Source: Rudaea sp.
Lineage (GTDB): Bacteria; Pseudomonadota; Gammaproteobacteria; Xanthomonadales; Rhodanobacteraceae
Direction of reading: 5' to 3'
DNA length: 38,150 nt
NCBI GenBank assembly: GCA_036271355.1
Contig: DATBAU010000143.1
Location: forward strand, 1-38,150
The notes below the pieces were generated by a model, which saw nothing but the letters and a program-made list of their open reading frames with translations, had not been told where the DNA came from and searched no databases. Position numbers and translations under genes: made by a program. This document shows, in pieces, positions 1 through 20,957 of this stretch; position 1 is the stretch's first letter, and each line of letters opens with the position of its first letter.

Positions 1-26
1 TTGACGCATTTGCTAGCATCCGTGCA

Positions 27-1859
27 ATGGATTCGCGCGCGTTGCACGTTCTCAATTCGGTTTTCGGTTACGCGGCGTTCCGCGGCGAGCAGCAGGCGAT
101 CATCGAGCACGTCGCGCGCGGCGGCGATGCGCTCGTGCTGATGCCGACCGGCGGCGGCAAATCGCTGTGTTATCAGATTCCGTCGCTGCTGCGCGAAGGC
201 ATCGGCATCGTCGTCTCGCCGCTGATCGCGCTGATGCAGGATCAGGTCGCCGCGCTGCGGCAGCTCGGCATCGAAGCGGCGTTTCTCAATTCCAGTCTCG
301 ATGCCATGGCGCAGCGTGATGTCGAGCGCCGCATGTTGGCGGGCGAACTGAAACTGTTGTATGTCGCGCCGGAACGTTTGCTGACCGAGCGTTTTCTCGA
401 TCAGATGTCGCGCATGCCGCTCGCGCTGTTTGCCATCGACGAGGCGCATTGCGTGTCGCAGTGGGGCCACGATTTCCGGCCGGAATACCGACAGCTGACG
501 ATCCTGCACGAGCGCTTTCCCGATATTCCGCGCATCGCGTTGACGGCGACGGCCGATGCGCCGACGCGGCGCGAGATCGTCGAGCATCTCAAGTTGGATG
601 ATGCGCGGCAGTTCGTTTCGAGCTTCGACCGGCCGAACATTCGGTATCGCGTCATCGAGAAGGACAACGCGCGACGGCAGCTCGCCGAGTTTCTCGAAGC
701 GCACGCGGGACAATCCGGGATCGTCTATTGCCAGTCGCGCAAGAAAGTGGAAGACACCGCCGGCTGGCTGGTCGAACAGGGTATCGCCGCGCTGCCGTAT
801 CACGCGGGCATGGATGCGGCGTCGCGCACGGCGAATCAGCAGCGCTTCCAGCGCGATGAGGGCATCGTCATGGTCGCCACCGTCGCGTTCGGCATGGGCA
901 TCGACAAACCCGATGTGCGTTTCGTCGCGCATCTGGATTTGCCGAAAAGTCTGGAAAGCTATTATCAGGAAACCGGACGCGCGGGACGCGACGGTCTGAG
1001 CGCCGACGCGTGGATGTGCTACGGACTCGGCGACGTCATCGCCATTCATCAGTTCATCGCGCAATCCGAGTCGGGCGAAGAGCGCAAACGGGTGGAGCGC
1101 GCCAAACTCGACGCGCTGCTCGGCTACGCCGAAACCACCGGTTGTCGGCGCAAACGTCTGCTCGCTTATTTCGGCGAAACACTTGGCGCGCCGTGCGGAA
1201 ATTGCGACAACTGTCTGGAGCCGACCACCGCCATCGACGGCACCGTATTCGCGCAGAAAGCGCTGTCGTGCGTGTATCGCAGCGGTCAGCGTTTTGGCGT
1301 GAAGCATCTCGTCGCCATCCTGCGCGGCGAGGACGACGAGCGCGTACGGTCGCTCGGCCACGACCGGTTGAGCGTCTTCGGCGTCGGCAAGGAATTGGAC
1401 GAGCGGCAATGGCGCAGTGTGTTTCGTCAGTTAGTCGCCGCTGGTCTGCTTGCGACGGATGATGAAGGTTACGGCGTGCTGAGTCTTGCGCCGGCGAGCA
1501 AACCGATCCTGCGCGGCGAAGGCACGATCAGCCTGCGCAAACCGGCCGAGAAAAAAGAACGCCGTCGCAAAACGCCGCGTGGCGATACGGCGAAGCCGTC
1601 GCTCGACATCGCGCCGCACGAGACGCATCGCTGGGATCAGCTGCGCGCGACACGCGCACGCCTCGCGCGCGAGCAAAGTGTGCCGGCGTATGTGATCTTT
1701 CACGATGCGACGTTGCTTCAGATGCTGCGCGATAGGCCGCAGACGGCGGATGCGATGGTTAAGATCAGTGGTGTCGGCGCAGCGAAGCTGGCGAAGTACG
1801 GCGAGGCGTTTTTGCAGGTGCTGCGGAGAACGGCGAACGGACCCGCCGTCGCCGATTAG
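27..1859 (+). CDS. recQ: ATP-dependent DNA helicase RecQ
   Basis: MPTGGGKS Walker [26 protein letters not shown], Zn-binding CRR...CGNCDNC, RQC and C-terminal HRDC ([12 protein letters not shown]). Confidence 0.97.
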
Positions 1860-4492
1860 TCGAATCCGTTCTCGAATACGCGGTCGTTCGGGATCAGGAC
1901 GAAATTGACGATGTGCGGTTGCGTCGCGCCTGCGTTCACGTTGACCGGCGTTCCTCCCGACAGCGGGCATTTCTGGTCGTAGGCAGTTCCGTTCGGGCAC
2001 GAAATTCCGGAATAGATTTGATCGGTATAACCGCCACCCGCCTCGGTCGCGAGGTAATACGACGAACCGACGGGCGCGGAAACCATGTAGAAACCATTTT
2101 GGTCGGTGCCGGCGCCGGATACATAGCTGCGGTCGATGGAAGAAAATAGGTCGACGACGGCCCCGCTCACCGGTGTGCCGTGGTCATCGACGATGCGGCC
2201 AACCACCGCATCGAGTCGCGTCACCTGGAAATCCACATCCGTTGCCGAGACGCCAGTCCCGAGAACGATCGGCGTGCCCGTTGTGGCTACGCACGTCGAG
2301 CAGTCGATGCCTTGCCAGATCTGGCTGATGTAAGTGCCATAGTAGTTCGGCGTGGCGACGGCGTAGTACGTGCCCGGCGCAACATCGGTGATGACGTAAT
2401 TGCCGTCCGCATCGGACGCGGCATAGCCGATAACGGTTCCCGTGCCGTCATAGATGGTCGTCGTTATGGATGCCGGAATATCGCTGCCGGCGCCGGCGCG
2501 GATTCCGGCGTGTCCGCCGATACGGGACGAGGCATTCAACGCGAAGTCGAACGACGGCACCGTCTGCTCACCCGCCACGACAGTGAGCAACGTGGCGCCC
2601 GCTATGTTGCAGTTCGCGCTGGAATAATAATTTGTCGCTTCGCAAATGATGCCGCTATAAACCTGATCGACATGGTCGCTGCTCTGGGCCCACACGAAAT
2701 ACTGACCCGCAGGGACGTTTGGGATACCGTAATTGCCAAGGCCATCCGTGACCGAGTTCAGGTTCGAATAACCGGACATGCTCGGCGGCTGCGTGTTGAG
2801 GAAGACTTGCACGTTTCGCAACGGCGCGCCCGTCGTCGCGTCGGTGATGTGGCCACTCAGCGTCGGAAAATAGTCCAGGACAAAATCCGCCTCGATGCTT
2901 TGGCCCACGGAAGTAAACGTGAACGCCGTGGCTTCGGACAGTTCGGCAACACAATTCGAAATGCAATCGTGAGCGGGATAAAGCTGAGAGAAGACGGTGT
3001 TGCCGCTGGCATAGATATAGTAGGTACCTGTGCCGATGGACCCGGCGGTGTAGTTGCCGTAATTATCGGTTCCGCCATAGGCGACGTTGTTTCCATTTTT
3101 ATCGAGGACGATCAGACTGACGGAACTTAACGGCTGGCCATCGCTGCCCGTCACTTTTCCGGTAAATGACGATAGTCGCGGGAGCCGGAAGTCCACATCG
3201 GTCACATCTTGCGAAGCAACGATGACTACGTTTGCCGCCAATGCGTTGCATTGCGATTGCGACGGACCGGCACAAGGAACGTTGTCGTACAACTGCGACC
3301 CATAACCCTGCGCGAAGGCTTGGATCACGTACGAACCCGGCGGCAGGGTGGTAAAGACGAAATGCCCCGCGGTGTCGGTATTGACGGAGGTTACTCCCTG
3401 ACCGTTCGGCATCAGCAGCGAAACCGAGCTTTGACTCAACGGAGTATTGTCCGTTGCGCGCACCTCCCCGGAGATTTTCTGTCCCGTGCTGAGCGAAAAG
3501 TTGATGTTCGAAACGGAACCGGTTGCGGTAACGGTGACCGTGTGCGCCTGGCTCAAATCGCATTCGGAGCTGTAATAGTAAATTCCATACGGACAGTTGC
3601 CCGTTGGATAAAGCTGGGTTATGTACGATTGCGCGCTGGCGACGACATAGTACGTGCCCGCCTGGGGAGCCGTCGCAGAGTAGTTGCCGTTCTGATCGGC
3701 ATAGCCGTATGCCGAGTAACCGTAGGTTGTCGAATATAAAGTGATGTAGGCGTTCGCGACGGGCGCGTTCGTCTTAATGTCTTTCACCGATCCGTTGACG
3801 GAGCCGGGTGCGACAGTGGCGTTGAGCATGACAATTCCAGAAACGCCCGAGTTCGCCAAATGCACAAACAGCGTTTGCGATGGAGCATTGACGGCGACGA
3901 CATCGGCATCGAGTCCAAGGCCATCGTCGTTGCTCGCGATGGATTGCGCGCCCGCTTCGCATCCAGCGAAAACCTCAAGTGACGGGTCCGGTCCGGCAGA
4001 TGTGGTGCGAAAGCGCAGATTCGCAGCGTCGACTCCCGACATGAAAAACCATGCATCGGACGACGTCTGTAACGCCAGTTGCACAGGATGGTCGGGCGAG
4101 ATTCCCAACGCATTGGCGCAATTTGCGCCGTGCGTTGCGGAAACCGATTCGAGATCGATTTGGGAACGTGGTAGTGAACCGGGAACCAAAGCCGGCGCTA
4201 ACGAATAGGCGATGTCGAACTTCAATTTTTCGAATCGCATGGCGATCGCCGTGAATTTACGAACGACGGTCTGGTCGGTTTCGGCAGCGATCGATGCGCG
4301 CGTGAGCGACAGCCGATGCTCCAGATCCGACATTTCAACCGAGGACGGCGTCGTGCCGTGATCGAATTGATCGGCGGCATGCGCGATTTGCGCACCCAAC
4401 GACCGAACGGCGTCGACTGTAACGGCGGATTCGGCGGCTACTTGAGCGCATGCCGCGAGCAGCGCCAGTAACGTGAAAATTCGTACGGCCAT
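1856..4492 (-). CDS. Secreted protein: PPC-like N-terminal domain + six carboxypeptidase-regulatory-like beta-sandwich repeats, C-terminal DRVFENGFD motif
   Basis: Signal peptide [20 protein letters not shown] from ATG 4492; repeats G-x-V-x-D...G-x-P...TD-x-x-G-x-Y...G-x-Y-Y-V; stop overlaps recQ stop (TTAG). Confidence 0.8.
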
Positions 4493-4749
4493 CGGTTTTC
4501 CCCAAAATATCGCGCTGCATGCCGCAACGATCGAATCGCGCAATTCTACCAGTGACCCGAACCCATCGGCGTGTGAACGAACTGGATCGTCTCGACATAC
4601 CGTTATCGATCAAGGACAATGCAGTGTCAGCCAGATCGCCCGCGGAAACGGGCTAAAGGCGTCTCAATCCTATCGGAAGACAAGGCCGCTCCAGGCCGCT
4701 TTAACGACCTGCTGTCAAAATTGCTGATGTCAATATTGTTGCAGCCCAC

Positions 4750-5475
4750 ATGATGACGGGGATCCGCGTGTCCGACTGGACTATTCTCTGTGACTTCGAT
4801 GGCACCGCCGCCCTCGACGACACAACCGACACTTTGCTCGAAACGTTTGGCCGCGACGGCTGGGAAGCGCTGGAAGCGGAATGGCGCGCCGGCAAAATCG
4901 GCTCGCGCGAATGCATGGCCGGCCAAGTCGCCTTGCTCGACATGGACCGCACGCAGCTCGATGCGCATCTGGCCGCGCGCAAACTCGATGCGTCGTTCGC
5001 GGAGTTCGTCGCGCTGACGCGAGAGCTCGGCATGCACGTCGAAATCCTGAGCGACGGTTTGGATTACGCGATCCATAAAATCCTCGCGCGCTACGCATTG
5101 GATGGTTTGCCCGTTACGTCCAACAAGCTTGATGTGGTTGAAGACCGTCGCTGGAAATTGACGTTTCCGAATGCAAGCACGGAATGCCGCGTCGCCAGCG
5201 GCACGTGCAAGTGCGCGTGCTCGGTGAATGCGCGCGCCGCCGGTAAACGCGTGTTGCTGATCGGCGACGGCGCGTCGGATTTTTGCGTCGCGCGCGTCGC
5301 CGACTTCGTTTTCGCGAAAGGCAAATTGATCGCGCATTGCATCGCCAACAACATCGCGCACGCGCCGATCACGGATTTTTCCGACGTCATCGCGCTGATC
5401 CCTTCGCTCATCGCAGGCCAATTGAGCGGCCGCGAACAACCTATTCATTCGCAGGATATCGTTTCTCATGCGTGA
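4750..5475 (+). CDS. MtnX-like HAD-IB family phosphatase (start may be GTG 4768)
   Basis: CDFDGT motif I, LSDG motif II, CKC, IGDGASD motif IV, ADFVFAK. Confidence 0.88.
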   Translation: MMTGIRVSDWTILCDFDGTAALDDTTDTLLETFGRDGWEALEAEWRAGKIGSRECMAGQVALLDMDRTQLDAHLAARKLDASFAEFVALTRELGMHVEILSDGLDYAIHKILARYALDGLPVTSNKLDVVEDRRWKLTFPNASTECRVASGTCKCACSVNARAAGKRVLLIGDGASDFCVARVADFVFAKGKLIAHCIANNIAHAPITDFSDVIALIPSLIAGQLSGREQPIHSQDIVSHA

Positions 5476-6883
5476 AGCTGCAGTGCCGGTAAGGCCGGTG
5501 TTTTCCAGCGTCGATCGCGACGTGGATCTGCTCGCCGACGAAGCCAAATATTGTTCGTTCGGCGATACGGTGCATTACTCCGATCCGCCGAAAATTTTTG
5601 ACCGTTGCGACGGCAGTTACCTGTACGACGGCAACGGCACGCCGTTCCTCGATCTGCAGATGTGGTATTCGGCCGTCAATTTCGGCTATGCCAACAAACG
5701 CCTCAATGATGTGCTGAAACATCAGATCGACACCTTGCCGCAAGTCGCCAGTCAATATCTCCACCCGACCAAGATCGAGCTGGCGAAAGTGGTCGCGCAA
5801 GACGCGAAGAAGAAATGGGGCCTCGACGGCCGCGTGCATTTCAATGTGGGTGGTTCGCAGTCGGTCGAAGATTCCATGAAGATCGTGCGCAACGCGAGCA
5901 ACGGCAAAAGCCTGATGTTCGCGTTCGAAGGCGGCTATCACGGCCGCACGCTGGGCGCGTCGGCGATCACGTCGTCGTATCGCTACCGGCGCCGCTACGG
6001 TCATTTCGATCGCGCACAGTTCGTCGAATTTCCGTATCACTTCCGCGGGCCGAAAGGCATGTCGAAGGAAGAGTACGGCGAACTCTGCGTGGCGAAATTC
6101 GAGCGCCTGTTCGAGACCGAATACAACGGCGTGTGGGATCCGAAAGTCGGCCAGTGCGAATACGCGGCGTTTTATGTCGAACCGATCCAGGGCACGGGCG
6201 GTTATGTCATTCCGCCGCCGAATTTCTTCACGGGCTTAAAGCGCGTACTCGATAAATACGGCATCTTGCTTGTCGTCGACGAAATCCAGATGGGATTTTT
6301 CCGCACCGGCAAATTGTGGTCGATCGAACATTTCGGCGTAAAACCCGATGTGTTGGTGTTCGGCAAGGCGCTGACGAACGGCCTGAATCCGCTCGCCGGC
6401 ATTTGGGCGCGGGAAGAACTGATCAACCCGAAAGTTTTTCCGCCTGGATCGACGCATTCGACATTCGCATCCAATCCGCTCGGCACGGCGGTCGGACTCG
6501 AAACGATGAAGATGCTCGCCGAAACCGACTACGAAGCGATGGTGATGGCGAAGGGCGAACGTTTCCTTGAAGGCCTTCGCGAACTGCAGAAAAAGCACAA
6601 GGAAATCGGCGATGTCGATGGATTGGGTTTAGCGTTGCGTGCGGAAATTTGCGAAGCCGACGGGTTCACGCCGAACAAGAAATTGCTCGACAAGATGTGC
6701 GACATCGGCCTGGCCGGCGAACTCGACCACGGCGGCAAGAAAATCGGCTTGGTGCTCGATGTCGGCGGCTACTACAAGAACGTGATCACGCTGGCGCCGT
6801 CGCTGCACATCAGCAACGACGAAATCGATCTGGGATTGAAGCTGATCGATCAGCTTCTGACGAAGGCGAAAAAACTCGCCTGA
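5468..6883 (+). CDS. Class III PLP-dependent aminotransferase
   Basis: YHGRT, VEPIQGTGG, DEIQMGFFRTG, FGKALTNG (PLP lysine), HSTFASNP; start overlaps the end of the phosphatase gene. Confidence 0.92.
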   Translation: MREAAVPVRPVFSSVDRDVDLLADEAKYCSFGDTVHYSDPPKIFDRCDGSYLYDGNGTPFLDLQMWYSAVNFGYANKRLNDVLKHQIDTLPQVASQYLHPTKIELAKVVAQDAKKKWGLDGRVHFNVGGSQSVEDSMKIVRNASNGKSLMFAFEGGYHGRTLGASAITSSYRYRRRYGHFDRAQFVEFPYHFRGPKGMSKEEYGELCVAKFERLFETEYNGVWDPKVGQCEYAAFYVEPIQGTGGYVIPPPNFFTGLKRVLDKYGILLVVDEIQMGFFRTGKLWSIEHFGVKPDVLVFGKALTNGLNPLAGIWAREELINPKVFPPGSTHSTFASNPLGTAVGLETMKMLAETDYEAMVMAKGERFLEGLRELQKKHKEIGDVDGLGLALRAEICEADGFTPNKKLLDKMCDIGLAGELDHGGKKIGLVLDVGGYYKNVITLAPSLHISNDEIDLGLKLIDQLLTKAKKLA

Positions 6884-6900
6884 CAAGGACCCCACTAATT

Positions 6901-7125
6901 TGTCATTCCAGCGAGGAGCTCCACAACAGCGAAGCTGGTCAAGCTGGAATCCAGCTTTGATTTAAGGAAAGCCAGAGCTTTCACTCGCCTGCGGCGAGTG
7001 AGTCACTTTCTTTGCTGCGTGCAAAGGAAGTAAGCAAAGAAAGCACGTTTGTTCTTCACGAACGGTGTGTTCGCCGAAGCCACATCCCTGTACCTGCGTC
7101 GAACGGCGCACTTCCTGTGCGCCGT
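6901..7125. repeat. Composite REP/MITE-like palindromic intergenic element
   Basis: ATTCCAGC(6905-6912)/GCTGGAAT(6943-6950); TCACTCGCC-TGC-GGCGAGTGA (6981-7001); CTTTCTTTGCT(7006-7016)/AGCAAAGAAAG(7033-7043); ACGGCGCAC-TTCCT-GTGCGCCGT (7103-7125); lies between convergent genes. Confidence 0.7.
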
Positions 7126-7156
7126 ATGCGTCGCAGTGGATTTGGATTAAAGCGAT

Positions 7157-8035
7157 TCAATTCCAGGTGAGAATGCGGTCGGCGATCGTCTGCGTACGGC
7201 CGCCGACCCACACCTCGCCGCCGGCGTCGATGCGCAGCGTGATCGATGCATCGTGTCCCATCTCACGGCCCTGGCTCACGCGAAAGCCGCGTGCGAGTGT
7301 GCCGCCCGGTTCGCACATGGCGATCCACGTTGCGATCAAGCCGTTCGCCGCGCCTGACGCCGGATCTTCGACGATGCCGACGCCCGCCGGAAATGCGCGA
7401 ACGACCAGTTGATAGTCGGCATTCGCGCAGCGCGCGAACACGCACAGGCCCATGCAATTGTCGAGCTTCGCCAGCGCACCGATGGCGGCGTGATCCGGTT
7501 GCCACGAACGTACCGATTCCTCATCCGCGAATTCCGCGACCCACCAGCGCCGTCCGCCTTCGATGAGCGCGGGCGGCAGGCCGCCCATGCGCCGATCGCC
7601 GAGGGCCGCGTTCAACGCGGTGCGACTGGCGGCAGAGTCGGCAACCTTTTTTGCACTCGGCGCCTGGATGAGAAGTTCGCGCGACTCGCTTTTTCCTTCG
7701 ACGCGAATCGGAAGCAAGCCGGCGCCGCATTGCTGAATCAGAGTTCCATCGCGGGCCGCAGCGAACCCCGTATTGAGCGCCGCGTGCGCGCTGCCGATGC
7801 TCGGATGTCCGGCGAACGGAATTTCCTGGGTGGGTGTAAAAATGCGCAAACGATAATTTGCGGCATCGTTTTCCGGCGGCAGGAGAAATGTCGTTTCGAC
7901 AAGATTCGTCCACGCCGCGAAGCGCTGCATTTCCGAGCCGCTCCAGCCGCGCGCATCGACGACGACGCCCAGCGGATTGCCGCCGCCCGGTGTGGCCGGA
8001 AAAACGTCGAGCTGCAAATAATGGAAAGTCGGCAT
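7157..8035 (-). CDS. PhzF family isomerase/epimerase
   Basis: QLDVF...GGNPLGVV, NLVETTF, RIFTPTQEIPFAGHP, EDPASGAANG, SQGREMG. Confidence 0.92.
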   Translation of the reverse strand: MPTFHYLQLDVFPATPGGGNPLGVVVDARGWSGSEMQRFAAWTNLVETTFLLPPENDAANYRLRIFTPTQEIPFAGHPSIGSAHAALNTGFAAARDGTLIQQCGAGLLPIRVEGKSESRELLIQAPSAKKVADSAASRTALNAALGDRRMGGLPPALIEGGRRWWVAEFADEESVRSWQPDHAAIGALAKLDNCMGLCVFARCANADYQLVVRAFPAGVGIVEDPASGAANGLIATWIAMCEPGGTLARGFRVSQGREMGHDASITLRIDAGGEVWVGGRTQTIADRILTWN

Positions 8036-8101
8036 GCGACGAAGACCGAGGCGAGGCGGATCGAAAACGATGGATGATAGCGTTTTCGACGAACGAAAAA
8101 G

Positions 8102-9316
8102 TCAGTCGAAACGTTTCAATGCGATGACGGCATTCAATCCGCCGAACGCAAACGAGTTGGACAATACGGCGCGGACTTTTTTCTCGCGCGCGACGTTCGG
8201 CACGCAGTCGAGATCGCACGCGGGATCCGGATCGATGAAATTGGCCGTGGGCGGGATCACGCCGTCGCGCAGTGCGCCGATGGCGGCAACCAGTTCGATG
8301 GCACCCGCCGCGCCGAGTGCATGGCCGTGCATGGATTTCGTCGACGATACGGCGAGCGTATTCGCGTGCTCGCCGAACACGCGGCGAATCGCTTTGGATT
8401 CGGTCGGATCGTTCGCGGGCGTACCGGTGCCGTGCGCATTGATGTAGCCGATGTCGCCGGCGTCGAGCCGTGCGTCGCGCAACGCGCTGGCGAGCGCTCG
8501 GGCCGCGCCGGTTTCGGACGGCAGCACGATGTCGCCCGCGTCGGCCGACATGCCGCTGCCGGCGAACTCGGCGAGAATCGTCGCACCGCGCTGGCGAGCG
8601 TGTTCGTATTCTTCGAGCACGAAAATCCCGGCGCCTTCGCCGAGTACCATGCCGCGCCGCTGCTTGCAGAATGGACGGCATGTGTCGTCGGCCGTCACGC
8701 GCACGGCTTCCCAGGCTTTTATTGTCGGCACGGTGATGCAGGCTTCTGTTCCGCCCGTCACGGCAAAATCCACTTTTCCACTTCGCACCATGTCGAACGC
8801 CTGTGCCATCGCGTGATTCGCCGAGGCGCACGCGCTCACGACGGCGAACGACGGTCCGGTCAATTTGTATTCCATCGTGATCTGGCAGGCCGGCGCGTTC
8901 GCCATGAGGCGCACGATGGTCAGCGGATGCACGCGCGGATTCCTGTCGCCGTAAAATCGCTGCGACTGTTCGTTGTGCGTGTTCTCGCCGCCGATGCCGG
9001 TGCCGACGATGCAGGCGGTGCGTTCGCCGATTTCCGACTCGGTGAATGCCAAACCGGATTGCGCGACGGCTTCGCGCGCGGCAATCAGCGCGAATTGCGA
9101 AACGCGGTCGAGCAGGATCAATCGTTTCGAATCGAAATGCTTCGACGGATCGTAGCCGCGCACTTCCGCGGCGATTTTCACGTTCAGCAGATCCGTGGGA
9201 ATATTCGCGATGGGACCGATGCCGGAGCGGCCTTCGCACATCGCGCGCCACTGTTCGCCGGCGTCGTGGCCGAGCGAACTGATGCTGCCCATGCCCGTGA
9301 TCGCGACGCGTCGCAT
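8102..9316 (-). CDS. Beta-ketoacyl-ACP synthase II family, NodE-like
   Basis: SACASANHA (catalytic Cys), NAHGTGT, SSTKSMHGHALGAAG, SNSFAFGGLN; segments KAWEAVRV..DTCRPF, D-A-x-DIV-x-PS and PDPACDLD resemble rhizobial NodE. Confidence 0.9.
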   Translation of the reverse strand: MRRVAITGMGSISSLGHDAGEQWRAMCEGRSGIGPIANIPTDLLNVKIAAEVRGYDPSKHFDSKRLILLDRVSQFALIAAREAVAQSGLAFTESEIGERTACIVGTGIGGENTHNEQSQRFYGDRNPRVHPLTIVRLMANAPACQITMEYKLTGPSFAVVSACASANHAMAQAFDMVRSGKVDFAVTGGTEACITVPTIKAWEAVRVTADDTCRPFCKQRRGMVLGEGAGIFVLEEYEHARQRGATILAEFAGSGMSADAGDIVLPSETGAARALASALRDARLDAGDIGYINAHGTGTPANDPTESKAIRRVFGEHANTLAVSSTKSMHGHALGAAGAIELVAAIGALRDGVIPPTANFIDPDPACDLDCVPNVAREKKVRAVLSNSFAFGGLNAVIALKRFD

Positions 9317-9340
9317 TGTGTTTCCGCCAAGTCGTGAGGA

Positions 9341-9604
9341 TCAGGCCGGCGGGGACGCGGCCTGTTTTTCCGCGAGGAGTTTTTCGACGGCGTCGACGAG
9401 ACCTTTCACGGATTCCGTGTCGAAATTCGGATCGCGGTCGGGCAACGTTATTTTGTAGTGGTCTTCGATCTCGAAAATGATCTGCACCGCGTCGAGCGAT
9501 TGGATTTCCAGATCTTTCAATGTCGACTCGGGCGTGATCCTGGCGATATCGATGCCGGCTTCCTTGGAAATGATGCTGAAGACGGTGTCCTGAACACTAC
9601 TCAT
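9341..9604 (-). CDS. Acyl carrier protein (paralog dedicated to the adjacent ketosynthase)
   Basis: ITPESTLKDLEIQSLDAVQIIFEIED ACP signature with Ppant Ser; GGAG-type RBS upstream; directly upstream of KS. Confidence 0.88.
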   Translation of the reverse strand: MSSVQDTVFSIISKEAGIDIARITPESTLKDLEIQSLDAVQIIFEIEDHYKITLPDRDPNFDTESVKGLVDAVEKLLAEKQAASPPA

Positions 9605-9649
9605 GAAGTTCTCCGCGACTCGTCGCTTAAGGATATCGGATGGCTAAGG

Positions 9650-10075
9650 TTACCGCGAGCCGGGCCGCGCGGTCGATGGAGGCACGTTGTGAGCGGCATC
9701 CGGGTTGGAGTCGGCGCCGAGCATGAAGATGCCTACCAGAATGATCAATGAACCCATGACTTGCATTGCGCCGACACGTTCGCCGAACAGCAGCCATGAC
9801 GAACACATCACGGCAACGAATACGATCGCGCTGGTGGCGAACGCGGAAGACAACGTCGACCGACGCAGGATCGTGAGCCACGCGAGGAATGCGCCGATGT
9901 AGCAGGCGATCGCAACCCAAAGCCATCCTGTCGTCAGCGCGCGCAAAAACGCATCGGGCGAGAAGTCGAAAGGACCTGTCGCCCGTCCCGCCATTTTCAG
10001 CGAAATCTGGCAAATCGTCTCGCACGTCAGCAATAGCAGCCAGGCCATCCAGGTGCGTGCTGCGATAACCGCCAT
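9650..10075 (-). CDS. EamA/SMR-like small membrane transporter (ArnE/ArnF-like)
   Basis: Four hydrophobic helices, ETICQISLK, LSSAFA, LLFGERV; start at 10075 or 10081. Confidence 0.8.
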   Translation of the reverse strand: MAVIAARTWMAWLLLLTCETICQISLKMAGRATGPFDFSPDAFLRALTTGWLWVAIACYIGAFLAWLTILRRSTLSSAFATSAIVFVAVMCSSWLLFGERVGAMQVMGSLIILVGIFMLGADSNPDAAHNVPPSTARPGSR

Positions 10076-10080
10076 TCCCA

Positions 10081-10941
10081 TCAATCGACAGCGATGACAA
10101 CTCGCGATTGTTCGGGCATGTGCACGAAACGCGTGGCGGCGACTTCATTGAAGAAGCGCGCCGAGCGCTCGATCACCTGATCGCGTTCCTGATCCACGGT
10201 GATCATGTGGTAGCTGTTTTCCAGCAGCACGGTTTCGACCGGTCCGCCGATGCCGCGCACGATCGTGCGTACGTTCTTCAGGCTGGCCACGTCATCGTCG
10301 ACGGCGTGCACGACGAGACTCGGCGTGCGGATGCTGCGCAACTGCTGGCGCACGCGAAACGAGAGGCGATAAAACTCCGCCAGCGACGGCCACGGGTTGC
10401 CGGGCAATCCCGCCGCGGCACTGTCGCCGCTGAGCATGCTGCCGGCGATGCGGTTGCGGATGCGTTCGTCCTTGATGCCGTACGGAAAGCATTCGTAGAA
10501 TTTTTTCTTGTGGCCGAAGCCGAGCGCGGTGACGAGCGGCAACAGGAACGACAGTTTGCCGAGCCACGGAATGGTCCAGCCGTCGTAGACGAACGTGGTG
10601 CCGTACAGGCCGAGGCCGTCGACTTCATCCGGACGATCGGCGGCGAGCTTCAGCGCGAGCAACGCGCCCATCGACAAGCCGGCGACGAACATGTGGTCCA
10701 CGTCCTTGCGCAGCCGGTCGGCGGCTTCGCAAACGCTGCGGTACCAGTCGTGCCAGCCGGTTTTGAGCAGATCGCCTTCGTCGCCGCAATGGCCGGCGAG
10801 CTGCATGGCATAGACGGTGAAACCGGCCTTGTTGAGCCCCTTGGCGACAAAGCGCATTTCGGTCGGGGTGCCGGTCAGGCCGTGAATCAGCAACACGCCG
10901 GATCTGCCGCCGGGCATGTAGTAATCGGTCGCTTTGATCAT
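10081..10941 (-). CDS. Alpha/beta hydrolase (Est30/YvaK-like carboxylesterase/lipase)
   Basis: LLIHGLTGTP oxyanion motif, GLSMG nucleophile elbow, DDVAS Asp, SYHMIT His. Confidence 0.9.
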   Translation of the reverse strand: MIKATDYYMPGGRSGVLLIHGLTGTPTEMRFVAKGLNKAGFTVYAMQLAGHCGDEGDLLKTGWHDWYRSVCEAADRLRKDVDHMFVAGLSMGALLALKLAADRPDEVDGLGLYGTTFVYDGWTIPWLGKLSFLLPLVTALGFGHKKKFYECFPYGIKDERIRNRIAGSMLSGDSAAAGLPGNPWPSLAEFYRLSFRVRQQLRSIRTPSLVVHAVDDDVASLKNVRTIVRGIGGPVETVLLENSYHMITVDQERDQVIERSARFFNEVAATRFVHMPEQSRVVIAVD

Positions 10942-10986
10942 CAGGGCAATAAAGAATGCTTAGCTTCCCGGTATTTTGCCCCAGGC

Positions 10987-11015
10987 ACGGTATGAATACC
11001 TAAAATTACGTTAAG
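10987..11015 (-). promoter_or_regulatory. Candidate PmrA/BasR-like direct-repeat box with downstream -10-like hexamer
   Basis: Minus strand reads CTTAAC-GTAAT-TTTAGG-TATTCA-TACCGT in an AT-rich gap upstream of the esterase; imperfect match to YTTAAK-N5-YTTAAK. Confidence 0.35.
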
Positions 11016-11024
11016 GAACGTTGC

Positions 11025-11366
11025 TCAAGGCGCGCAAATGAGGGCCACGCCGAGCGCGATGGCGGCGGTTGCGATCCAGCGGCGCGTCGAGATGTGCTCG
11101 TGCAGGATGAACCGGCTGGCCACCACGACGCCGCAATACGACAGCGCCATGAAGGGATAGGCGAAGCTCAGCGGCGTCATGCTCAACACCGCGAACCAGA
11201 TCGTGAATTCCACGACATAGATGAGCACGCCGGCCACGATCCAGCGCGAGCCGAGCGCGGCGAGCAATCCCGACGATTCGCGCGTGTCGTCGACGCCGAG
11301 CTTGAAGCAGGTTTGGCCGGCGACGTCGCACGCCACGGTGCCGAGCAGCAGCGCGAACATCAACAT
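11025..11366 (-). CDS. EamA/SMR-like small membrane transporter (ArnE/ArnF-like)
   Basis: MLMFALLLGTVACDVAGQTCFK...PLSFAYPFMALSY...ILHEHIS; 113 aa; start overlaps the stop of the arginase-like gene; it is the C-terminal part of track ORF 11025..12206. Confidence 0.85.
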   Translation of the reverse strand: MLMFALLLGTVACDVAGQTCFKLGVDDTRESSGLLAALGSRWIVAGVLIYVVEFTIWFAVLSMTPLSFAYPFMALSYCGVVVASRFILHEHISTRRWIATAAIALGVALICAP

Positions 11367-12277
11367 GGGTGCGACGCCTTTTCGATCGCCGCGAGCAAGG
11401 CGATATTGACGCGCTCGTTCTGCGCTAGAAATTCGGTATTGCTCGGACGCCGCGGCTGATCCATCCGCGATTCCCATCGCTTGAGCAGATTCGCGTGCTC
11501 GATCGACGAAAATTCGCCGCAGATATCCGCGCCCACGATGCGCTTGTGCGCGCCGATCACGCCGATCGCACTCAGTACCTGCGCCAGCGGCATCTGTCCT
11601 TGATCCCAATTCGTCAGCGCTTCGGATTCGGGCAACACGTCCTTGTCGATACTGAACCAGATGGCGTCGGTGCGGATCAGCGAAGGAATGCTTGCGAGAA
11701 TTCCGTCGAAATCGTCGGCGAGATTGCGCCAGATCACGAAGCCTTCGTCGTAACGATGTCCCGCTCCGTCGGGGATCGGGTGATAAAGACGCGACGGCGC
11801 GTGCTTCCACGGAAACAGCACGAGTTTCCCCGACGCGAGCGCGGGAATGTTGCCGCCTTTCAATCCGGGCTTGACCAGATCGTCGCTGCACGGCCCGAGT
11901 GTGATCATACGATCGACGTGCGGCAACGACAGCGCACAATTCACCCACGATCCGCAATGCCAGCGCGGCGCGACACGCACCCAGTCGGGATGGTTGTCGA
12001 AGTGGATGATCGTGATCGGTTCGCGCGCTTGTTCCATCAGCAACGCGGCGAGATGATGGAAATCGCCGGAGCCGAGCATGTGAATCGTCGGTTCCGCGTC
12101 GGTCTCGCGAAGGCGCTCGCGCGCGGCGCGCACGGTGCGATCGCGACTCCACAGTCGCAGGCGCGGGCCGAGGTCGCGCAGATCGGTCGACGTCACCGAA
12201 CTCCACGGCGCGGCCGCGCGCAATGCAGGCAGTTGTGGCGGAAGGGAGCCGTCGAGATCGAGAAGCGTGAGGCGCAT
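11360..12277 (-). CDS. Arginase/ureohydrolase-fold metallohydrolase
   Basis: GSGDFHH, HFDNHPD, FSIDKDVL, TNWDQG, GADICGE match the ureohydrolase metal-ligand pattern. Confidence 0.82.
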   Translation of the reverse strand: MRLTLLDLDGSLPPQLPALRAAAPWSSVTSTDLRDLGPRLRLWSRDRTVRAARERLRETDAEPTIHMLGSGDFHHLAALLMEQAREPITIIHFDNHPDWVRVAPRWHCGSWVNCALSLPHVDRMITLGPCSDDLVKPGLKGGNIPALASGKLVLFPWKHAPSRLYHPIPDGAGHRYDEGFVIWRNLADDFDGILASIPSLIRTDAIWFSIDKDVLPESEALTNWDQGQMPLAQVLSAIGVIGAHKRIVGADICGEFSSIEHANLLKRWESRMDQPRRPSNTEFLAQNERVNIALLAAIEKASHPC

Positions 12278-12344
12278 CCGCGCGATGATAGACAAAAGCG
12301 CGCGGCGTGCGGTTTTTCAGGCTCCGTCTTTACAGAACCCGTGC

Positions 12345-12830
12345 TCAGGCGAATCGAGCGAACTTCCGCAACGCGAGCGCGATGGTCGGACCGATCACCA
12401 GCACGTGCATCGCAAAATCCGCCCACATGCCGACCACGGACGGCTTCGTCGGCGGCACGTTCGACAGCGGCAACACGACCAGATGCATGAACGCGTAGAT
12501 ACACACGCCATAGATCGCACCGCATAGAAGCGCGTTGTTGCGCATCCAGCGCACGCGCGTGAGCGCAACGAAATACAACGCCGCGGCGACAAGTAGGATT
12601 CCGTAATGCGAAACGAAGCCCAATGCGGCCGACGCCGCGCCGCCGTCGAAGGACGCGCGGCCGAGCCATCCGGACGCGATGAACTGCATCACGCGTTCGG
12701 GCGACACGCCGGACCGCAGTCCGTTGAACGTGCACGCGAAGATCATGTCGAACGACGCCGCGATCACGCCCGCGAGCAGGATCGCCAGCGCGTTGCGCGA
12801 TGCGGATGACGATTGCGTCATCGCGCTCAT
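12345..12830 (-). CDS. Hypothetical four-TM membrane protein
   Basis: Hydrophobic helices, QFIASGWLG...GFVSHY...FMHLVVLPLS; ATGA overlap with the upstream gene. Confidence 0.7.
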   Translation of the reverse strand: MSAMTQSSSASRNALAILLAGVIAASFDMIFACTFNGLRSGVSPERVMQFIASGWLGRASFDGGAASAALGFVSHYGILLVAAALYFVALTRVRWMRNNALLCGAIYGVCIYAFMHLVVLPLSNVPPTKPSVVGMWADFAMHVLVIGPTIALALRKFARFA

Positions 12831-13552
12831 TGCGCGGTCATCGCGCATTGATTGAGCGGAAGCCGAACGACCTGCGACACGTGTCCGCTCGCTTCATCCT
12901 GCACGAACGCGACGACGCTGCTCTTCGACAGATCGGTTCCGCGCGGAACGTTCAGATCGGTTTGCACATCGGTTTTATCGAACGGACCGTCGAACGCGCG
13001 CACGACCTGATCGTGCGCGAGTTGCCGTCCTTTGTTTTCGCCGGCGCGAACCGACGTGCTTAAACCATTTTCAGTCAGCGCGACGAAGATTTTCTGTCCG
13101 CCGAGATCGCCTGCGACGATGTGCGTTTTGACTTTGTTGCCGGGCACGGCATCGATCGTGAGCGTCGGTGCGGCGGTCGCGGCCGCGCTCGGCGGATCGC
13201 CTCCCGGCCAGTTGTGCCAGAGTTCGCCGTCGACCCACACCTGCGGCGTGTAGAACTGGCCTTTGTTGAAACGGCGCGAGAGTTTTTCCTGCCGCTGCGT
13301 GTACGACTTGCTGTCGAATGGATCGCGCCAGCCGCCGTTGTCCCAGTAGTCGACGTGGAATTCGAGGCCGACCTCGTCGGGTTTATCGACAAGCTTGCTC
13401 ATCCACTTTTCCGCCGGCGGGCACGAGCTGCATCCCTCGCTCGTGTAAAGCTCGACGAGATGCGGCCGATCCGCGCCGCTTTGCGCGGTGCACGCGGCGT
13501 GCGCGGGCAATGTGGCGAGCATGGTCAGCGCGGTAATGGCGATCTTGTGCAT
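12827..13552 (-). CDS. DUF1223 secreted thioredoxin-like protein
   Basis: Signal peptide, VELYTSEGCSSCPPA, FHVDYWD..GWRDPF, YTPQ, V.AGENKG; GGGAGG RBS. Confidence 0.9.
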   Translation of the reverse strand: MHKIAITALTMLATLPAHAACTAQSGADRPHLVELYTSEGCSSCPPAEKWMSKLVDKPDEVGLEFHVDYWDNGGWRDPFDSKSYTQRQEKLSRRFNKGQFYTPQVWVDGELWHNWPGGDPPSAAATAAPTLTIDAVPGNKVKTHIVAGDLGGQKIFVALTENGLSTSVRAGENKGRQLAHDQVVRAFDGPFDKTDVQTDLNVPRGTDLSKSSVVAFVQDEASGHVSQVVRLPLNQCAMTAQ

Positions 13553-13625
13553 GGAAATTCCTCCCGACGGGTCGCACAACATGTCCGGACGACGAGGGTC
13601 GAGCGATCGTCGCATGACTGATGAC

Positions 13626-13946
13626 CTAGCGGAAATTGCGCAGCTCGATCGCGTTTTCCACGCCCATCACGCCGCGCGTCTCGCGCGCGATGTCCTCAAC
13701 CAGCCGGCGCTGCGGGTCGGTGTCGACCATGCCGTGCAGATACACGACGCCGTTGATGCTCTGCACATCGATGGTCCAGTCCGTCAATTCGTCGTGGCGA
13801 TCGATTTCGGCCTTGATGTTCGCGGTGATTTCCGCGTCGCTCACGCAACCGATGCCCGAGCAGGGCTTCGACGGTTCTTCCATGCAGCCGCCCGCGAAGA
13901 CGCCGAAGGCGAGGGTCAGTGCCGCGCAAAACGTCCAACTCTTCAT
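13626..13946 (-). CDS. BON domain lipoprotein
   Basis: Lipobox-like FAGGC; SDAEITANIK...IDVQSINGVVYLHG...GVMGVENAI. Confidence 0.88.
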   Translation of the reverse strand: MKSWTFCAALTLAFGVFAGGCMEEPSKPCSGIGCVSDAEITANIKAEIDRHDELTDWTIDVQSINGVVYLHGMVDTDPQRRLVEDIARETRGVMGVENAIELRNFR

Positions 13947-14056
13947 TACATTTCTCCGTGGTTCCGGCTCAACTATATCGCGCGCGAGTGAATACGGCGT
14001 TTCAACGTGCGATGCAGGATTTACCTTATTGGCAGGCTGAAGTCATTTGCCTATGA

Positions 14057-14098
14057 TCTGTAGCTACAGACGTCTATTTTTCGACGACGTCTTTTTCG
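14057..14098. promoter_or_regulatory. Perfect 14-bp palindrome plus direct repeats; candidate operator
   Basis: TCTGTAGCTACAGA (14057-14070), then GACGTC(TA)TTTTTCG twice (14069-14083, 14086-14098), between divergent BON and adhesin genes. Confidence 0.4.
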
Positions 14099-14118
14099 GT
14101 CGACCAATTTAGGGGTGG

Positions 14119-17100
14119 GTGATGGTTGGGAAGTTGCGTGCGCGTGCGTGCAGGATCGTTGTGGCGTTCAAGAATGCACGCTTCGATCGAATGATGTCGC
14201 GAAGTTTCGCGTTGATCGGTTTGCTGATGGTTGCGCATGCGGCATCCGCGCAACAGGTCCAGGTCAATAAATCATTCAACCCGGCCAGCGTCACGCTGGG
14301 CGCGACATCGGTCGTCACCGTGACGTTGCAAAACACGTCGACGACATCGGCAGCGACCATCTCCGGTTTCACCGACGACATCGCCTCGATGGGTGGCTCC
14401 GCGCAGTTGCTCGGCACACCGACGCCGACCACGACATGCACCGGCGGCACGCCGACTGTCAGCGGCACGGCGATCGTGATGAGCAACGGCGTCATTCCGA
14501 TCGCGCCGAATGCGTCCACGCCGGGCTCGTGCACGATTACCTTCAGCGTGCGCACGCTCAAGACCGGCAACGGCTTCAACACGATTCGCGCCAGCGACGT
14601 GGTCACATCGAACGGCTCGCCAAGTTCGGACGTGACGCAAACGCTCACCGTTCAAGCCGCGAACATCACGACGGCATCGGGACCGGTGCAGACCGTCCTG
14701 ACCGGGGACACGGCGACCGTCACGTACACGCTGACGAACACGACACCGGTGACCTTGACCAACGTGACGTTTCCGATCACGTCGAATGCGACGTCGGCTT
14801 ACACGGTCTCGGGAACCGGTGTGGGCGCCACCTGCGGCGGAACGGCTACGTTGCCGGCACCGGGTGGCACGACCGGCACGACGACGTTCTCCGGCATCAC
14901 GATTCCGGCAAGCGGCGCGTGCACGGTGACGTTGCAGGTGACGACGCCGACCGTCGAAACGGTGAACTTCACGCTCGTCGCCAACGCCATCGCCGACGAT
15001 CAGGGCGCGACGAATTCCACCGGAACGTCGGGACAGGCCAAGTTCGTCAACGGACAACCGAACGTCTCCAAAGCATTCAATCCCACCTCGGTGCAGCCGG
15101 GCAGCACATCGACGGTGACACTGAAAATCCAGAACGTGCTGACCGATCAGGCGCTCAACGCGCTGGCCGATTCCGATCCGTTGCCCGCAGGATTTATCGT
15201 CGATGCAGCCGCGCCGACACAAACCGGCTGCGGCGGTGCGACGTTGGGTGGCGCAGGAACGGGAACGTTTACGATTTCCGGCGCGACCATCGCCGTTGGC
15301 GCAACGTGCACGATCACGTTCGTGGTCGACATACCGCTCGCTCAGGCACCCGCCACCTACACGAACACGGTTCCGAAAGGTAATTTGACGGCGACCAGCG
15401 ATACCGGCGCCGCGATCCCGGGCGCCGCGCAAAATGCGACTGCAAATCTCATCGTCACCGCTCCCGGCGGCGGTGTCGCCGCGACCAAGGCGGCCGCGCC
15501 GACATCGGCCGGCATCAACACGCCGATTTTGATCACGCTCACATTCGCGAGTCAGGGCAACGCTGCGTTCACTGCCGGACAGTTCACCGACGCGCTGCCG
15601 CAGACGCCAGTCGTGATGGAACAATTTTTCGACGGAGCCGCGCACGCACCGACGACGACCGGATGCGGTGGCGCGGCGATGATAAGTGCCGTGGACGGCG
15701 CGACCAGCGTCACGGGGTCCGGTCTCACCATCGCGGCGGGTGGAAGCTGCGTGGTCAAGTTCTACGTCTTCTTCCCGAACGTGACCGGCCCGAGTCGTGT
15801 CGACGCGAACACGTTGACCGGCATCAGCTTTACCAACAGCCTCAACAATCCGGTGACACCGACCTCGAACAGCGTGAACATCACCGAGCTGCCGACGTTC
15901 ACCGTCACCAATTACGTCGCATCCGCAAGCGGCCTGACCAATCAGCCGCTGACGGTATCCGCGACCGTCAACGTGCCGACCGGACAGAGCGATACGAACG
16001 CGTCGATCACGATTCCACTTAATTCCGTCACGCCCGCCAGCGTTGAGTTGGCGCCGACGCCGAATTTCACGTTCGCCAATTGTCCTGCCGGCGTCGACGC
16101 GACATCCGTCACGCCGGCCGCGAACGGCCAATCGTTCAGCGTCGTACTCGGCACCATCAACCAGACGTGCACCATCGGTTATGACGTGATCGATATCGGC
16201 AGTGTCGCGGGCACATTCACGCCGGGAAATCCGAGTTACAAGGGTGATCTGACCGGCCAGACGTCGGTGTCTTTCACCGGCACGAACAACGTCACGTTCA
16301 CGGCGCCGGTACCGATCGGCGTCAGCAAGTCGTTCACGCCGAACCAGATCCAGGCGGGTGGCGTGGCCACCGCGAAGATCGCGCTCGTCGTCCCGCGCGC
16401 GGGAACGCTGGCCGTGACGGAAGCCGAAGGTGTCGCGTTCACGGACAACCTGCCGACGAACCTCGTGTTCTCGCCGACGCCGAACGTCACGTTCACCGGC
16501 TGTCAGCAAACGGCGCAGCCTGCACCGAGCTTCGTGATCACGGGGACATCGATTGCGTTCTCCAATATTTCGCTGATTACCAACGGCACCACGCAGACGA
16601 CGTGCATCGTCGCCTTCGACGTGACATCGAACGCCGTCGGCGCGCCGCTCAACCAGATTCCCGCGGGTGCGGTGACTTCAACCGCCGGCGCAGGCGCGAC
16701 CAACACGCAGACCGCGAAAGCGTCGCTCACCGTGGCCGCTGGCCTCGGTGTGCAGAAGACGTTCGTCAACGCGAGCTTCCCAATCGGCGGCACCGACTAC
16801 ATTCGACTGCTCGTCACCAACACGGCGACGCCGTCGCCACTGACCGGCGGTTCGCTCGCGGACAACATGCCGACGAGTCTCGTGCTGGCCAGTCTCACGG
16901 AAGGTCCGTCGCAAGCGGGCGATCCGCCGTTGTGCGGCGGATCAATCAGTGGCTCGTTGGGTTCGAGCAACTACGTGCTCAACGGATTGAGCATCGGCGG
17001 ATATATCGGCGGTGTGGCCGGCCAGTGCGTGGTCTATGTCCTCGTCACGTCCTCGCCGACGGCGGTACCTGCGACGGTAGCGAACACCATCGCTTCCGGC

Positions 17101-19608: not shown

Positions 19609-19617
19609 TCGATGTCC

Positions 19618-19638
19618 GGCTGACGCATCGCGTCAGCC
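19618..19638 (+). terminator. Hairpin directly after the adhesin stop
   Basis: GGCTGACGC-ATC-GCGTCAGCC; no U-tract, so terminator function is uncertain. Confidence 0.35.
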
Positions 19639-19739
19639 CCGACGCCGCAGGCCGCGCGCGATCGCATCGACGCGGCCACATTCATGGGTGATCGGCTGGA
19701 CACGCTCATTGCTGTGTCCCCTGCAAGGGGAGATCAGCC

Positions 19740-20009
19740 GTGAAGCCGAATCCGCATTTTCCGAATGCCCGCGCACTCGCGGGCAACGCCGACGCCGCCG
19801 AAACCGTGTCGCGCCGCATGGCGCGCGAAGTCATGTTTTCCGTCGTCGATACGCTCGTCACCGAAACCGGCGCGAGCCGCCCGCGCATCGTCAAGGTGCT
19901 CAAGCAGGAAGCCCTCGACGCCAATCATCCCGACAAACTCGAACTCATCTTCGATCTGATCGCAGCGCTCGAACTCGGCACCGACAGCGCGTTCCTGCGC
20001 ACGCGCTGA
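19740..20009 (+). CDS. Hypothetical 89-aa protein
   Basis: AAGGGGAG RBS before GTG; genome-typical codon use; amphipathic helical sequence. Confidence 0.6.
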   Translation: MKPNPHFPNARALAGNADAAETVSRRMAREVMFSVVDTLVTETGASRPRIVKVLKQEALDANHPDKLELIFDLIAALELGTDSAFLRTR

Positions 20010-20321
20010 AACTGCTGCAAACCGTGACAAAGCGGCGTTTCATGTCACGCGGCGAAATGGCGGTGTTTCGCAGCCGCAAATCATCCTTCTCGCGTGCGCC
20101 GTCGCCGGTGTATTCCGGCGTCCCATTAGCCGCGCATCCCCGGCACCGCGCCCGACATCGGCGCATACGAAATCAATCCGGGCATCATTTTTTTTTGACG
20201 GACTCCAGACGAAGCATGTCAGATTTTTCTGATGCCGCCGCGCAACCGGGGGTCCGACCGCTCGGTTGCGTTGAGATATCCTCACGCATCGACGTTGTTT
20301 CATCGCTTGGCGATCCGACCG

Positions 20322-20957
20322 ATGCCTCTGCAAAACCGCGTGACGCCGTTTGGCGACATCATCGCCATTCCGCAACGCGGAATGTTCACGGGCAATCGCG
20401 GAATCATCCACGATCCCGCGACCAAGACACTACTTCGCAAACGCTGGTCGAGCAAAGCATGGATCGTTTGCACGTGCAGCTACAAGAATCGTCGCCGCGA
20501 TGTGATGGCTGCGCGGAGCTGGACCGAACTGTTCTTCCTCGACGAAGCCATCGCACTCGCCGCCGGGCATCGCCCGTGTTTTGCGTGTCGCCGCGAATCC
20601 GCCGAAGCATTCCGCGCAGCGTGGAATGCAGCGAAAGGAACCCGCGATGCGAAAGTGCCGGAGATCGATCGGACGCTGCACCATGAACGCCTTCAGAACG
20701 GACGCAAGCAAATTCATGCGTTGCAGACGCGTCTCGACGAACTTCCTGACGGCGCGGTCGTCGCCAGCGGCGACGATGCGTATACGATCGCGCACGGACT
20801 TGCTTTCCGCTGGACGACCGGCCATTACGCGCCGCCGCGAAAATTGAAAAGCGTCGACGGTGTGCTCACACCACCTTCGACGTTGCAAGCGATGCGCGCC
20901 GGCTATCGGCCTATCTTGCATCCGGATATCGACGTAGCGTTTCCGAATTCCGCCTGA
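20322..20957 (+). CDS. Conserved hypothetical protein with an Ada-like Cys metal-binding motif
   Basis: MPLQNRVTPFG...GNRGIIH...WIVC...ELFFLDEAIALAAGHRPCFACRR. Confidence 0.8.
   Translation: MPLQNRVTPFGDIIAIPQRGMFTGNRGIIHDPATKTLLRKRWSSKAWIVCTCSYKNRRRDVMAARSWTELFFLDEAIALAAGHRPCFACRRESAEAFRAAWNAAKGTRDAKVPEIDRTLHHERLQNGRKQIHALQTRLDELPDGAVVASGDDAYTIAHGLAFRWTTGHYAPPRKLKSVDGVLTPPSTLQAMRAGYRPILHPDIDVAFPNSA

Follow-up and report, generated by a model that had tools for sequence, protein, structure and literature searches.

Among the described systems closest to the genes studied here are the aminoacyl-phosphatidylglycerol synthases (aaPGS) of the MprF type, and the available part of a 2024 review of bacterial aminolipids (PMC11631085) describes aminoacyl-phosphatidylglycerols, including arginyl-phosphatidylglycerol, as made from charged tRNA. 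Partial likenesses come from two further systems, namely the nodA2-hsnT-nodFE cluster of R. tropici, in which NodE leads to alpha,beta-unsaturated acyl chains (PMC3557214), and the rtx-like operon of P. phymatum (PMC5789663). Here we analyse 38,150 nt of Rudaea sp. (assembly GCA_036271355.1, contig DATBAU010000143.1, positions 1-38,150, forward strand; hereafter, the window), in which an earlier note, made from the sequence alone, had proposed an amino-lipid or envelope-modification system of nine genes in two convergent operons. It is our view, held at slightly better than even odds (a probability of about 0.55), that these genes represent a widespread proteobacterial cassette for building, modifying and exporting an amine-bearing membrane lipid, seen here on a contig that fuses the versions of two species.

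Results

All nine open reading frames (ORFs), together with the families that the earlier note had assigned to them, were recovered at their coordinates by an ORF check and profile searches (Table 1). The co-occurrence of the plus- and minus-strand blocks across genera, which the note had set as a test of its idea, was borne out for every family except PhzF. Namely, at least one minus-block gene accompanies the class-III aminotransferase in 73 of 80 loci, and in 38 of the 40 with 8 kb on both sides. The 80 loci are the best of 549 confirmed aminotransferase loci, a sample that leans to close relatives, in which kin are not independent, and presence was counted by tblastn. By these counts, the phosphatase of the HAD family is found at 79 loci, the esterase at 63 (both together at 62), an EamA protein at 38, the ketosynthase (KS) with the acyl carrier protein (ACP) at 33 and the arginase-like protein at 32, in many gene orders, while the neighbouring recQ, taken for comparison, is found at just 9; the linkage between the blocks exceeds chance. 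PhzF, which the note had counted as part of the system, occurs at just four loci (three from Rudaea and one from a close relative) and was ruled out as a pathway member for this reason. The cluster is spread over Alpha-, Beta- and Gammaproteobacteria and Desulfovibrio, and the 80 loci include Lysobacterales, Nevskia, Pseudomonas, Azonexus, Azoarcus, Caldimonas, Bosea, Phenylobacterium, Rhizorhabdus and Desulfovibrio. As a separate observation, two loci from Desulfovibrio metagenome-assembled genomes (MAGs; L073 and L074) hold the cassette, and the ureohydrolase match in L074 (genome G072) has one internal TGA.

Several genes recur at these loci without being present in the window. Recurring families, meaning clusters seen in at least 4 of the 80 loci, were taken from an all-against-all BLAST clustering of 1,293 ORFs that a codon filter had picked out of 6,911, some shadow frames among them. 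Those absent from the window include a FemAB-like GNAT (34/80), HlyD (21/80), an FtsX permease (21/80), a DegT-family enzyme (16/80), TolC (15/80), a desaturase (10/80) and a cyclopropane synthase (7/80). In this way, two points of the earlier note found support, since the GNAT that it had looked for in vain in the window is present at these 34 loci and on contig C260 of the window's own genome bin, and since lipid-handling neighbours do recur, namely the desaturase, the cyclopropane synthase and KS/ACP. In named strains the set is arranged as one or two operons adjoining two-component systems or exporters, and on Agrobacterium and Rhizobium plasmids it forms one operon that includes TolC/ABC, desaturase or cyclopropane synthase genes. 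The DegT-family enzyme, which depends on pyridoxal 5'-phosphate (PLP), mostly adjoins the EamA pair (e.g. L081, 17158-18411).

The aminotransferase, which is present at every locus by construction of the sample, matches PF00202 at E 3e-74 with invariant PLP residues K300, D271 and Q274. It forms a tight family, full-length members being at least 64% identical and the next relatives at most 43%, with 68-95% identity across four classes within the 80-locus sample; of the named relatives among the matches listed, Rudaea MAGs come nearest, at 94-95%. The family comprises more than 5,500 protein clusters and is found in culturable Agrobacterium, Rhizobium, Xanthomonas, Lysobacter and Pseudomonas. 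The Glu/Arg switch described for ornithine aminotransferase in PMC13327489 is absent: positions located by alignment to E. coli GabT and archaeal homologs (reference pairs E235/R413 in ornithine aminotransferase and E211/R398 in GabT) hold Thr243 in 80 of 80 sequences and Thr441 in 79 of 80, with one gap. Because threonine fills both positions, the enzyme is not a plain GABA or ornithine transaminase, the case that the earlier note had named as refuting its proposal. At the same time, the substrate arginine R160 is kept, and R172, R174, R175, R176, D431 and K437 are invariant in the family; the arginine patch at 172-176 could serve to bind a phosphate or an ACP. Fused longer forms were absent among 7,997 candidates, which is weak evidence, and no clear fusion was seen among the 150 best representatives; a plasmid search with the aminotransferase at E 1e-60 gave no match below 60% identity.

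The partner phosphatase has its catalytic residues intact (DFDGT, K154, GDGxSD). A role in methionine salvage as MtnX was considered and rejected, as the protein scores 83-97 bits against equivalog cut-offs of 292-303, and mtnB (TIGR03328) was not found in the window's genome bin (G000; completeness 90%, contamination 2.9%).

For the arginase-like protein, neither Pfam nor NCBIfam gave a match, and a sequence search of the Protein Data Bank (PDB) at E 10 found nothing. Its model, built from an alignment (A1) of the window protein with 24 of 30 clustered ORFs, has a predicted local distance difference test score (pLDDT) of 92.9 and resembles ureohydrolases (Z 18-23) more closely than deacetylases (Z 10-12). 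It reaches Z 23 with proclavaminate amidinohydrolase, agmatinase and arginase (best Z 23.3, root-mean-square deviation 2.8, 240 residues aligned), and the metal ligands H80/H81, D100, H102, D104, D217 and D219 are invariant in all 25 sequences. By its model, the protein thus has the ureohydrolase superfamily fold with binuclear metal ligands; a deacetylase reading is disfavoured (Z 12 versus 23).

Wherever it was found outside the window, the ureohydrolase has a GNAT for company. The GNAT belongs to families PF13480/PF04339, to which its homolog on C260 also belongs, and is a free-standing protein of 375 aa, the 22 aligned members being soluble proteins of 361-414 aa. The arginase-like gene goes with a GNAT in 46 of 46 genomes, made up of 32 of 32 loci and, beyond these, 14 of 14 genomes. 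No locus out of 80 has the former without the latter; the window is the only exception. Among 48 other genomes, 14 have an arginase-like gene elsewhere, all with a GNAT, and 8 have a GNAT alone, some of these matches with weaker scores. What is more, two metagenomic proteins (P0001 and P0002, 666 and 701 aa) are fusions of GNAT and ureohydrolase. On these sequence patterns, the two appear to act as a tied pair, as no tested genome has the ureohydrolase but lacks the GNAT. A model of the GNAT, built from 22 of 27 ORFs (alignment A2, first sequence from L012; pLDDT 89.4), gives Z 21.7 to FemA, 21.5 to FemX, 20.4 to Sbb17, 20.3 to FemXWv, 18.4 to L-PGS and 18.0 to MprF, with other tandem GNATs at 17.9 and below. 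Searching its profile against PDB sequences gave insignificant matches only, the best relevant one being 9wqw at E 0.23.

Of the remaining proteins, the esterase has an intact catalytic triad (S90-D217-H245) and matches best a Bacillus monoacylglycerol lipase (4lhe, E 5.8e-30); a search of the atlas with it returned generic names only. The KS has intact C163-H295-H332 and shows 51% identity to NodE from the R. tropici cluster introduced above.

The lone exception to the pairing of ureohydrolase and GNAT, namely the window itself, led us to check the contig, and we hold with high confidence that it is an assembly chimera of two co-occurring Rudaea-like species, joined inside the esterase at about 10454-10512. 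In particular, positions 5751-10550 match the genome of another species, G005, at about 99% overall and at 92.5-100% per 200-base block, mostly 98-100%, and beyond them the identity falls to 85% and then to 74%, with a background of approximately 76% between G005 and the window's genome. Informative sites in the esterase are C260-like up to nt 428 and G005-like from about nt 488. The repeat at 6967-7146 has approximately 30 copies at 83-95% in G005 and only six weak partial matches elsewhere in G000; its region (6884-7156), between the convergent operons, has a fold z of -4.0 and no Rfam match. Window 1-5800 has no counterpart in G005, so that only sequencing depth places the left boundary of the G005-like tract. 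Neither ureohydrolase nor cluster-type GNAT was found in G005, which is 93% complete. Finally, recQ, the carboxypeptidase-regulatory-domain gene and the cluster, GNAT included, are present a second time in bin G000, in syntenic arrangement on contigs C222, C273 and C260 (L095, L094 and L093) at 78-84% nucleotide identity; this copy is likely the bin's own left half. On C260, an intact GNAT lies between the esterase and an EamA gene.

Depth points in the same direction. Contigs of four soil runs (X1-X4), of which X1 is possibly the source sample, were aligned with window 1-20000. Median depth, which for contigs is only a rough measure, was compared between bins 2002-10005 and 11340-20000, leaving out two recQ bins, bin 1335-2001 and two bins at the joint. 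The left/right values are 6.8/16.9 in X1, 9.2/0.9 in X3 and 0.3/3.0 in X4, so that the direction of the step reverses between runs. Moreover, an X1 contig of depth 14.6 over 10271-11403 differs from the window at 28 letters, where C260 predicts 29 below 10512, and an overlapping one of depth 15.4 at 18, the count that C260 predicts (18/18), with a loose end equal to C260 1727-1756, 10 bases from the start of the GNAT. The allele switch, the depth step and the loose contig ends thus argue against what the earlier note had taken for granted, i.e. that the nine genes are the set of one organism. Population B (right half, the majority of the bin) likely has the full set in the order ureohydrolase-EamA-esterase-GNAT, an order shared with L003 and G008. 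Like G005 and G017, population A (left half) likely lacks both GNAT and ureohydrolase and has just the core, KS/ACP and the EamA pair. The GNAT is likely missing from the window because the contig joins the two populations mid-cluster. Several further contig pairs at 76-83% identity suggest more mixing in the G000 bin.

Table 1. Features of the cluster region, with window coordinates.
Feature	Position	Strand	Basis or occurrence
MtnX-like HAD-IB phosphatase, core gene, population A	4750-5475	+	TIGR01489, 92 bits, cut-off 81.55; 79/80 loci
Class-III aminotransferase (PLP enzyme)	5468-6883	+	PF00202
Palindromic intergenic repeat, ~170 bp	6967-7146	.	G005-type DNA marker in left half
PhzF-family isomerase, lineage-specific passenger	7157-8035	-	profile match; 4/80 loci
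NodE-like KS, optional acyl-chain module	8102-9316	-	C163/H295/H332; KS+ACP 33/80 loci
ACP, dedicated	9341-9604	-	profile match
Small EamA membrane protein, ArnF-like below family cut-off	9650-10084	-	38/80 loci
Monoacylglycerol-lipase-like alpha/beta hydrolase (esterase), two-allele mosaic here	10081-10941	-	S90/D217/H245; 63/80 loci
Inferred chimeric joint, populations A (left) / B (right)	10454-10512	.	allele switch, depth, loose ends
Small EamA membrane protein, ArnE-like below family cut-off, population B	11025-11366	-	34/80 loci
Ureohydrolase-fold (arginase-like) metallohydrolase, population B	11360-12277	-	conserved GSGDFHH, DNHPD, HCGSW, DKD

Within the cluster, the HAD and aminotransferase ORFs share 8 nt, and the esterase/EamA and arginase-like/EamA ORF pairs overlap too. 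A promoter scan found 2 against 2.2 expected, and an Rfam scan matched only a tRNA (21271-21343). Between recQ and the cluster lies a gene for an 895-aa protein with five carboxypeptidase-regulatory-like repeats (1856-4543), whose place is occupied by a desaturase gene in L001, L003, L004 and G008. Further along, 14119-19608 encodes a protein of 1,829 aa that carries ten repeats of DUF7933 and several of DUF11, and next comes a 332-aa ORF without a Pfam match (19688-20686).

Discussion

How might such a cassette work? The class-III enzyme would aminate a keto-phosphate or keto-acyl intermediate, the HAD protein would take off the phosphate and the monoacylglycerol-lipase-like enzyme would add or remove an acyl chain, so that this core of three would yield an amine-bearing acylated acceptor; the NodE/NodF-like KS/ACP pair, where present, would supply a special acyl chain. 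In the optional module, the Fem/MprF-fold GNAT would move an amino acid, likely arginine, from tRNA onto this acceptor, and the ureohydrolase would cut urea off the guanidino group, leaving an ornithyl group, which tRNA could not deliver directly. The two small EamA proteins would then flip the product across the inner membrane, with an ABC-HlyD-TolC exporter added in some genomes. A lipid as the amine-bearing product is somewhat favoured, because the partners are lipase-like, KS/ACP, desaturase, cyclopropane synthase and flippase-like proteins. The conversion of arginine to ornithine fits the observation that the ureohydrolase was never found without the GNAT, and we put it forward as a tentative proposal, rather less probable than the lipid itself. 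More doubtful still is the complete scheme, in which an atypical class-III enzyme would help to build an amino-alcohol or beta-amino-acyl lipid, a free-standing Fem-fold transferase would arginylate it from Arg-tRNA, a dedicated ureohydrolase would turn arginyl into ornithyl and the EamA proteins would flip the product. Ornithyl lipids would then arise in a tRNA-dependent way that needs neither OlsB nor MprF.

That said, a number of observations weigh against parts of this interpretation. First, the EamA proteins score 23-42 bits with the ArnE/ArnF profiles, below the cut-offs of 92 and 99. Second, L-PGS and MprF (Z 18.0-18.4) tie with tandem GNATs of the CoA type (17.2-17.9), so that the fold leaves the function unfixed, and the choice of arginine as the likely amino acid comes solely from the ureohydrolase partner. 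Third, 26 of the 48 other genomes, mostly incomplete MAGs, have neither GNAT nor ureohydrolase. Fourth, no acyltransferase of the PlsC/OlsA type, which could complete a diacyl lipid, is among the recurring families. Fifth, on a plasmid of Bartonella sp. (L084, 7950-11422), a trio of aminotransferase, GNAT and ureohydrolase faces an MBOAT acyltransferase gene with no HAD, esterase or EamA gene within 8 kb; in other words, HAD and esterase are not always linked to the cluster. As for the chimera, run X2 shows no step in depth (3.1/3.3), and a rare true recombinant may lie outside the contig records listed. In addition, the 5' half of the esterase (10513-10797) has 13 sites at which C260 and the window disagree, although the 3' half of the C260 gene agrees with the dominant population of X1; C260 may itself be a mosaic or a third strain.

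Could the product be a secreted small molecule instead, such as an N-acyl amino alcohol or an aminoacylated amphiphile acting as antibiotic or signal and exported by the EamA pair with ABC-HlyD-TolC? We consider this improbable, even if it is the strongest of the alternatives. Namely, the best Foldseek matches of the GNAT are Sbb17/Sba18, tRNA-dependent enzymes in the synthesis of streptothricin-type antibiotics, the top match of the ureohydrolase belongs to clavulanate synthesis, the HlyD, FtsX and TolC genes are found at 15-21 of the 80 loci, and the KS resembles NodE, which serves a secreted signal. Yet the conservation of the aminotransferase across four classes would better suit an envelope role, the neighbours are desaturase and cyclopropane synthase genes and two-component systems, and most loci do not have a TolC exporter.

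It is decidedly unlikely that the PLP enzyme is a racemase or a phospho-lyase, with the cassette editing or recycling lipids or amino acids (D-amino acids or head-group release). Both switch residues are gone, an alanine/serine racemase (9wqz, E 1.5e-55) ties as the best PDB match, and the PbfA ammonia-lyase model gives 194 bits, all of which one could cite in its favour. However, 9wqz has an aspartate at the position of the invariant Thr243; every NCBIfam match lies far below its cut-off; and pairing with a phosphatase fits the amination of a phosphorylated ketone.

Regarding the contig, true lateral transfer was considered and set aside on the contig letters at the switch and the depths in the runs. 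A true recombinant chromosome, its left part exchanged for a G005-type tract with loss of the GNAT and an orphaned ureohydrolase as the outcome, is very unlikely in our estimate. Homologous recombination would place a switch inside a conserved gene, as seen here, and in X2 the depth is equal on the two sides, with two zero-difference contigs meeting at 10483-10512. That said, the depths of the two halves change independently of each other in the other three runs, and in opposite directions, the sole bridging contig among those listed carries C260-type letters, and the bin holds a second syntenic set from recQ to esterase. Lastly, ordinary catabolic genes (a GABA/ornithine transaminase, an arginase and an esterase) adjoining by chance, as the automatic annotation "4-aminobutyrate aminotransferase" might suggest, can be dismissed almost entirely given the threonines at the Glu/Arg pair (PMC13327489), a linkage kept through many gene orders and the existence of GNAT-ureohydrolase fusions, and are contradicted by the co-occurrence.

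The system is real, widespread and seemingly uncharacterised, with its product inferred from its genes. A literature search that did not cover subscription journals and supplements found no description of the cluster, and neither "aminotransferase" nor "serinol" occurs in the available text of the 2024 review (PMC11631085). If the proposal of an amine-bearing membrane lipid is true, the cassette would be a new way for Gram-negative bacteria to put positive charge on their membranes, bearing on acid and cationic-peptide tolerance. Unidentified aminolipids are often reported from soil bacteria, and the cassette would bear on these as well. The window itself is unfit as a reference gene set because its gene combination is likely an assembly artefact, while the natural split into genomes with the core only, the core plus acyl module and the full set provides ready comparisons.

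How does the cassette compare with known systems? With MprF/aaPGS it shares a transferase of the tandem-GNAT fold (Z 18.0-18.4), a flippase-like partner and an alpha/beta hydrolase, although its GNAT is free-standing, without the membrane flippase domain of MprF, and is located on C260, outside the window. In the cassette it is accompanied by a HAD protein, a class-III PLP enzyme, a ureohydrolase and, optionally, KS/ACP, which are not known as parts of MprF systems. In structure, the GNAT comes closest to the tRNA-dependent transferases of the Fem/Sbb17 type (Z 20.3-21.7), but at 13-20% identity and with no recurring peptidoglycan or streptothricin genes at the loci. Of the Arn system, which makes L-Ara4N, the small EamA pair resembles ArnE/ArnF, and a DegT-family enzyme accompanies 16 of the 80 loci; in contrast, the metallohydrolase is a ureohydrolase and not a deformylase of the ArnD type, and the EamA proteins stay below the family cut-offs. 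No ArnA, ArnC, ArnD, ArnT or glycosyltransferase is among the families recurring in at least 4 of the 80 loci, and PMT_2 genes lie elsewhere in bin G000.

With rhizobitoxine synthesis, the likeness to RtxA is confined to the proposed chemistry, i.e. amination of a triose phosphate followed by dephosphorylation, as given in the available part of PMC3222319. Homology to RtxA was considered and rejected: the gene that opens the rtx-like operon of P. phymatum, matched by gene order since locus tags differ and used as a stand-in for B. elkanii RtxA, encodes a class V enzyme (PF00266) without a significant match (E 0.11). The rhizobitoxine/serinol analogy of the earlier note is therefore left without a basis in homology, the rtx-operon aminotransferase tested being unrelated. 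As to NodE/NodF, the KS identity of 51% and the order ACP-KS are shared, but the match of the ACP to NodF is weak (29%, E 0.07), KS and ACP occur together at 33 loci only, and there are no nod genes in the window or among the recurring families. OlsB/OlsA/OlsF would likewise result in an ornithine-bearing lipid. The family of OlsB is PF13444, whereas the cluster GNAT is PF13480/PF04339; bin G000 has separate PF13444 genes on C280 and C151. Taken together, the cassette resembles the aminoacylation of MprF/aaPGS combined with flipping of the Arn type, while it is a member of neither, nor is it an RtxA, MtnX or GABA/ornithine transaminase system.

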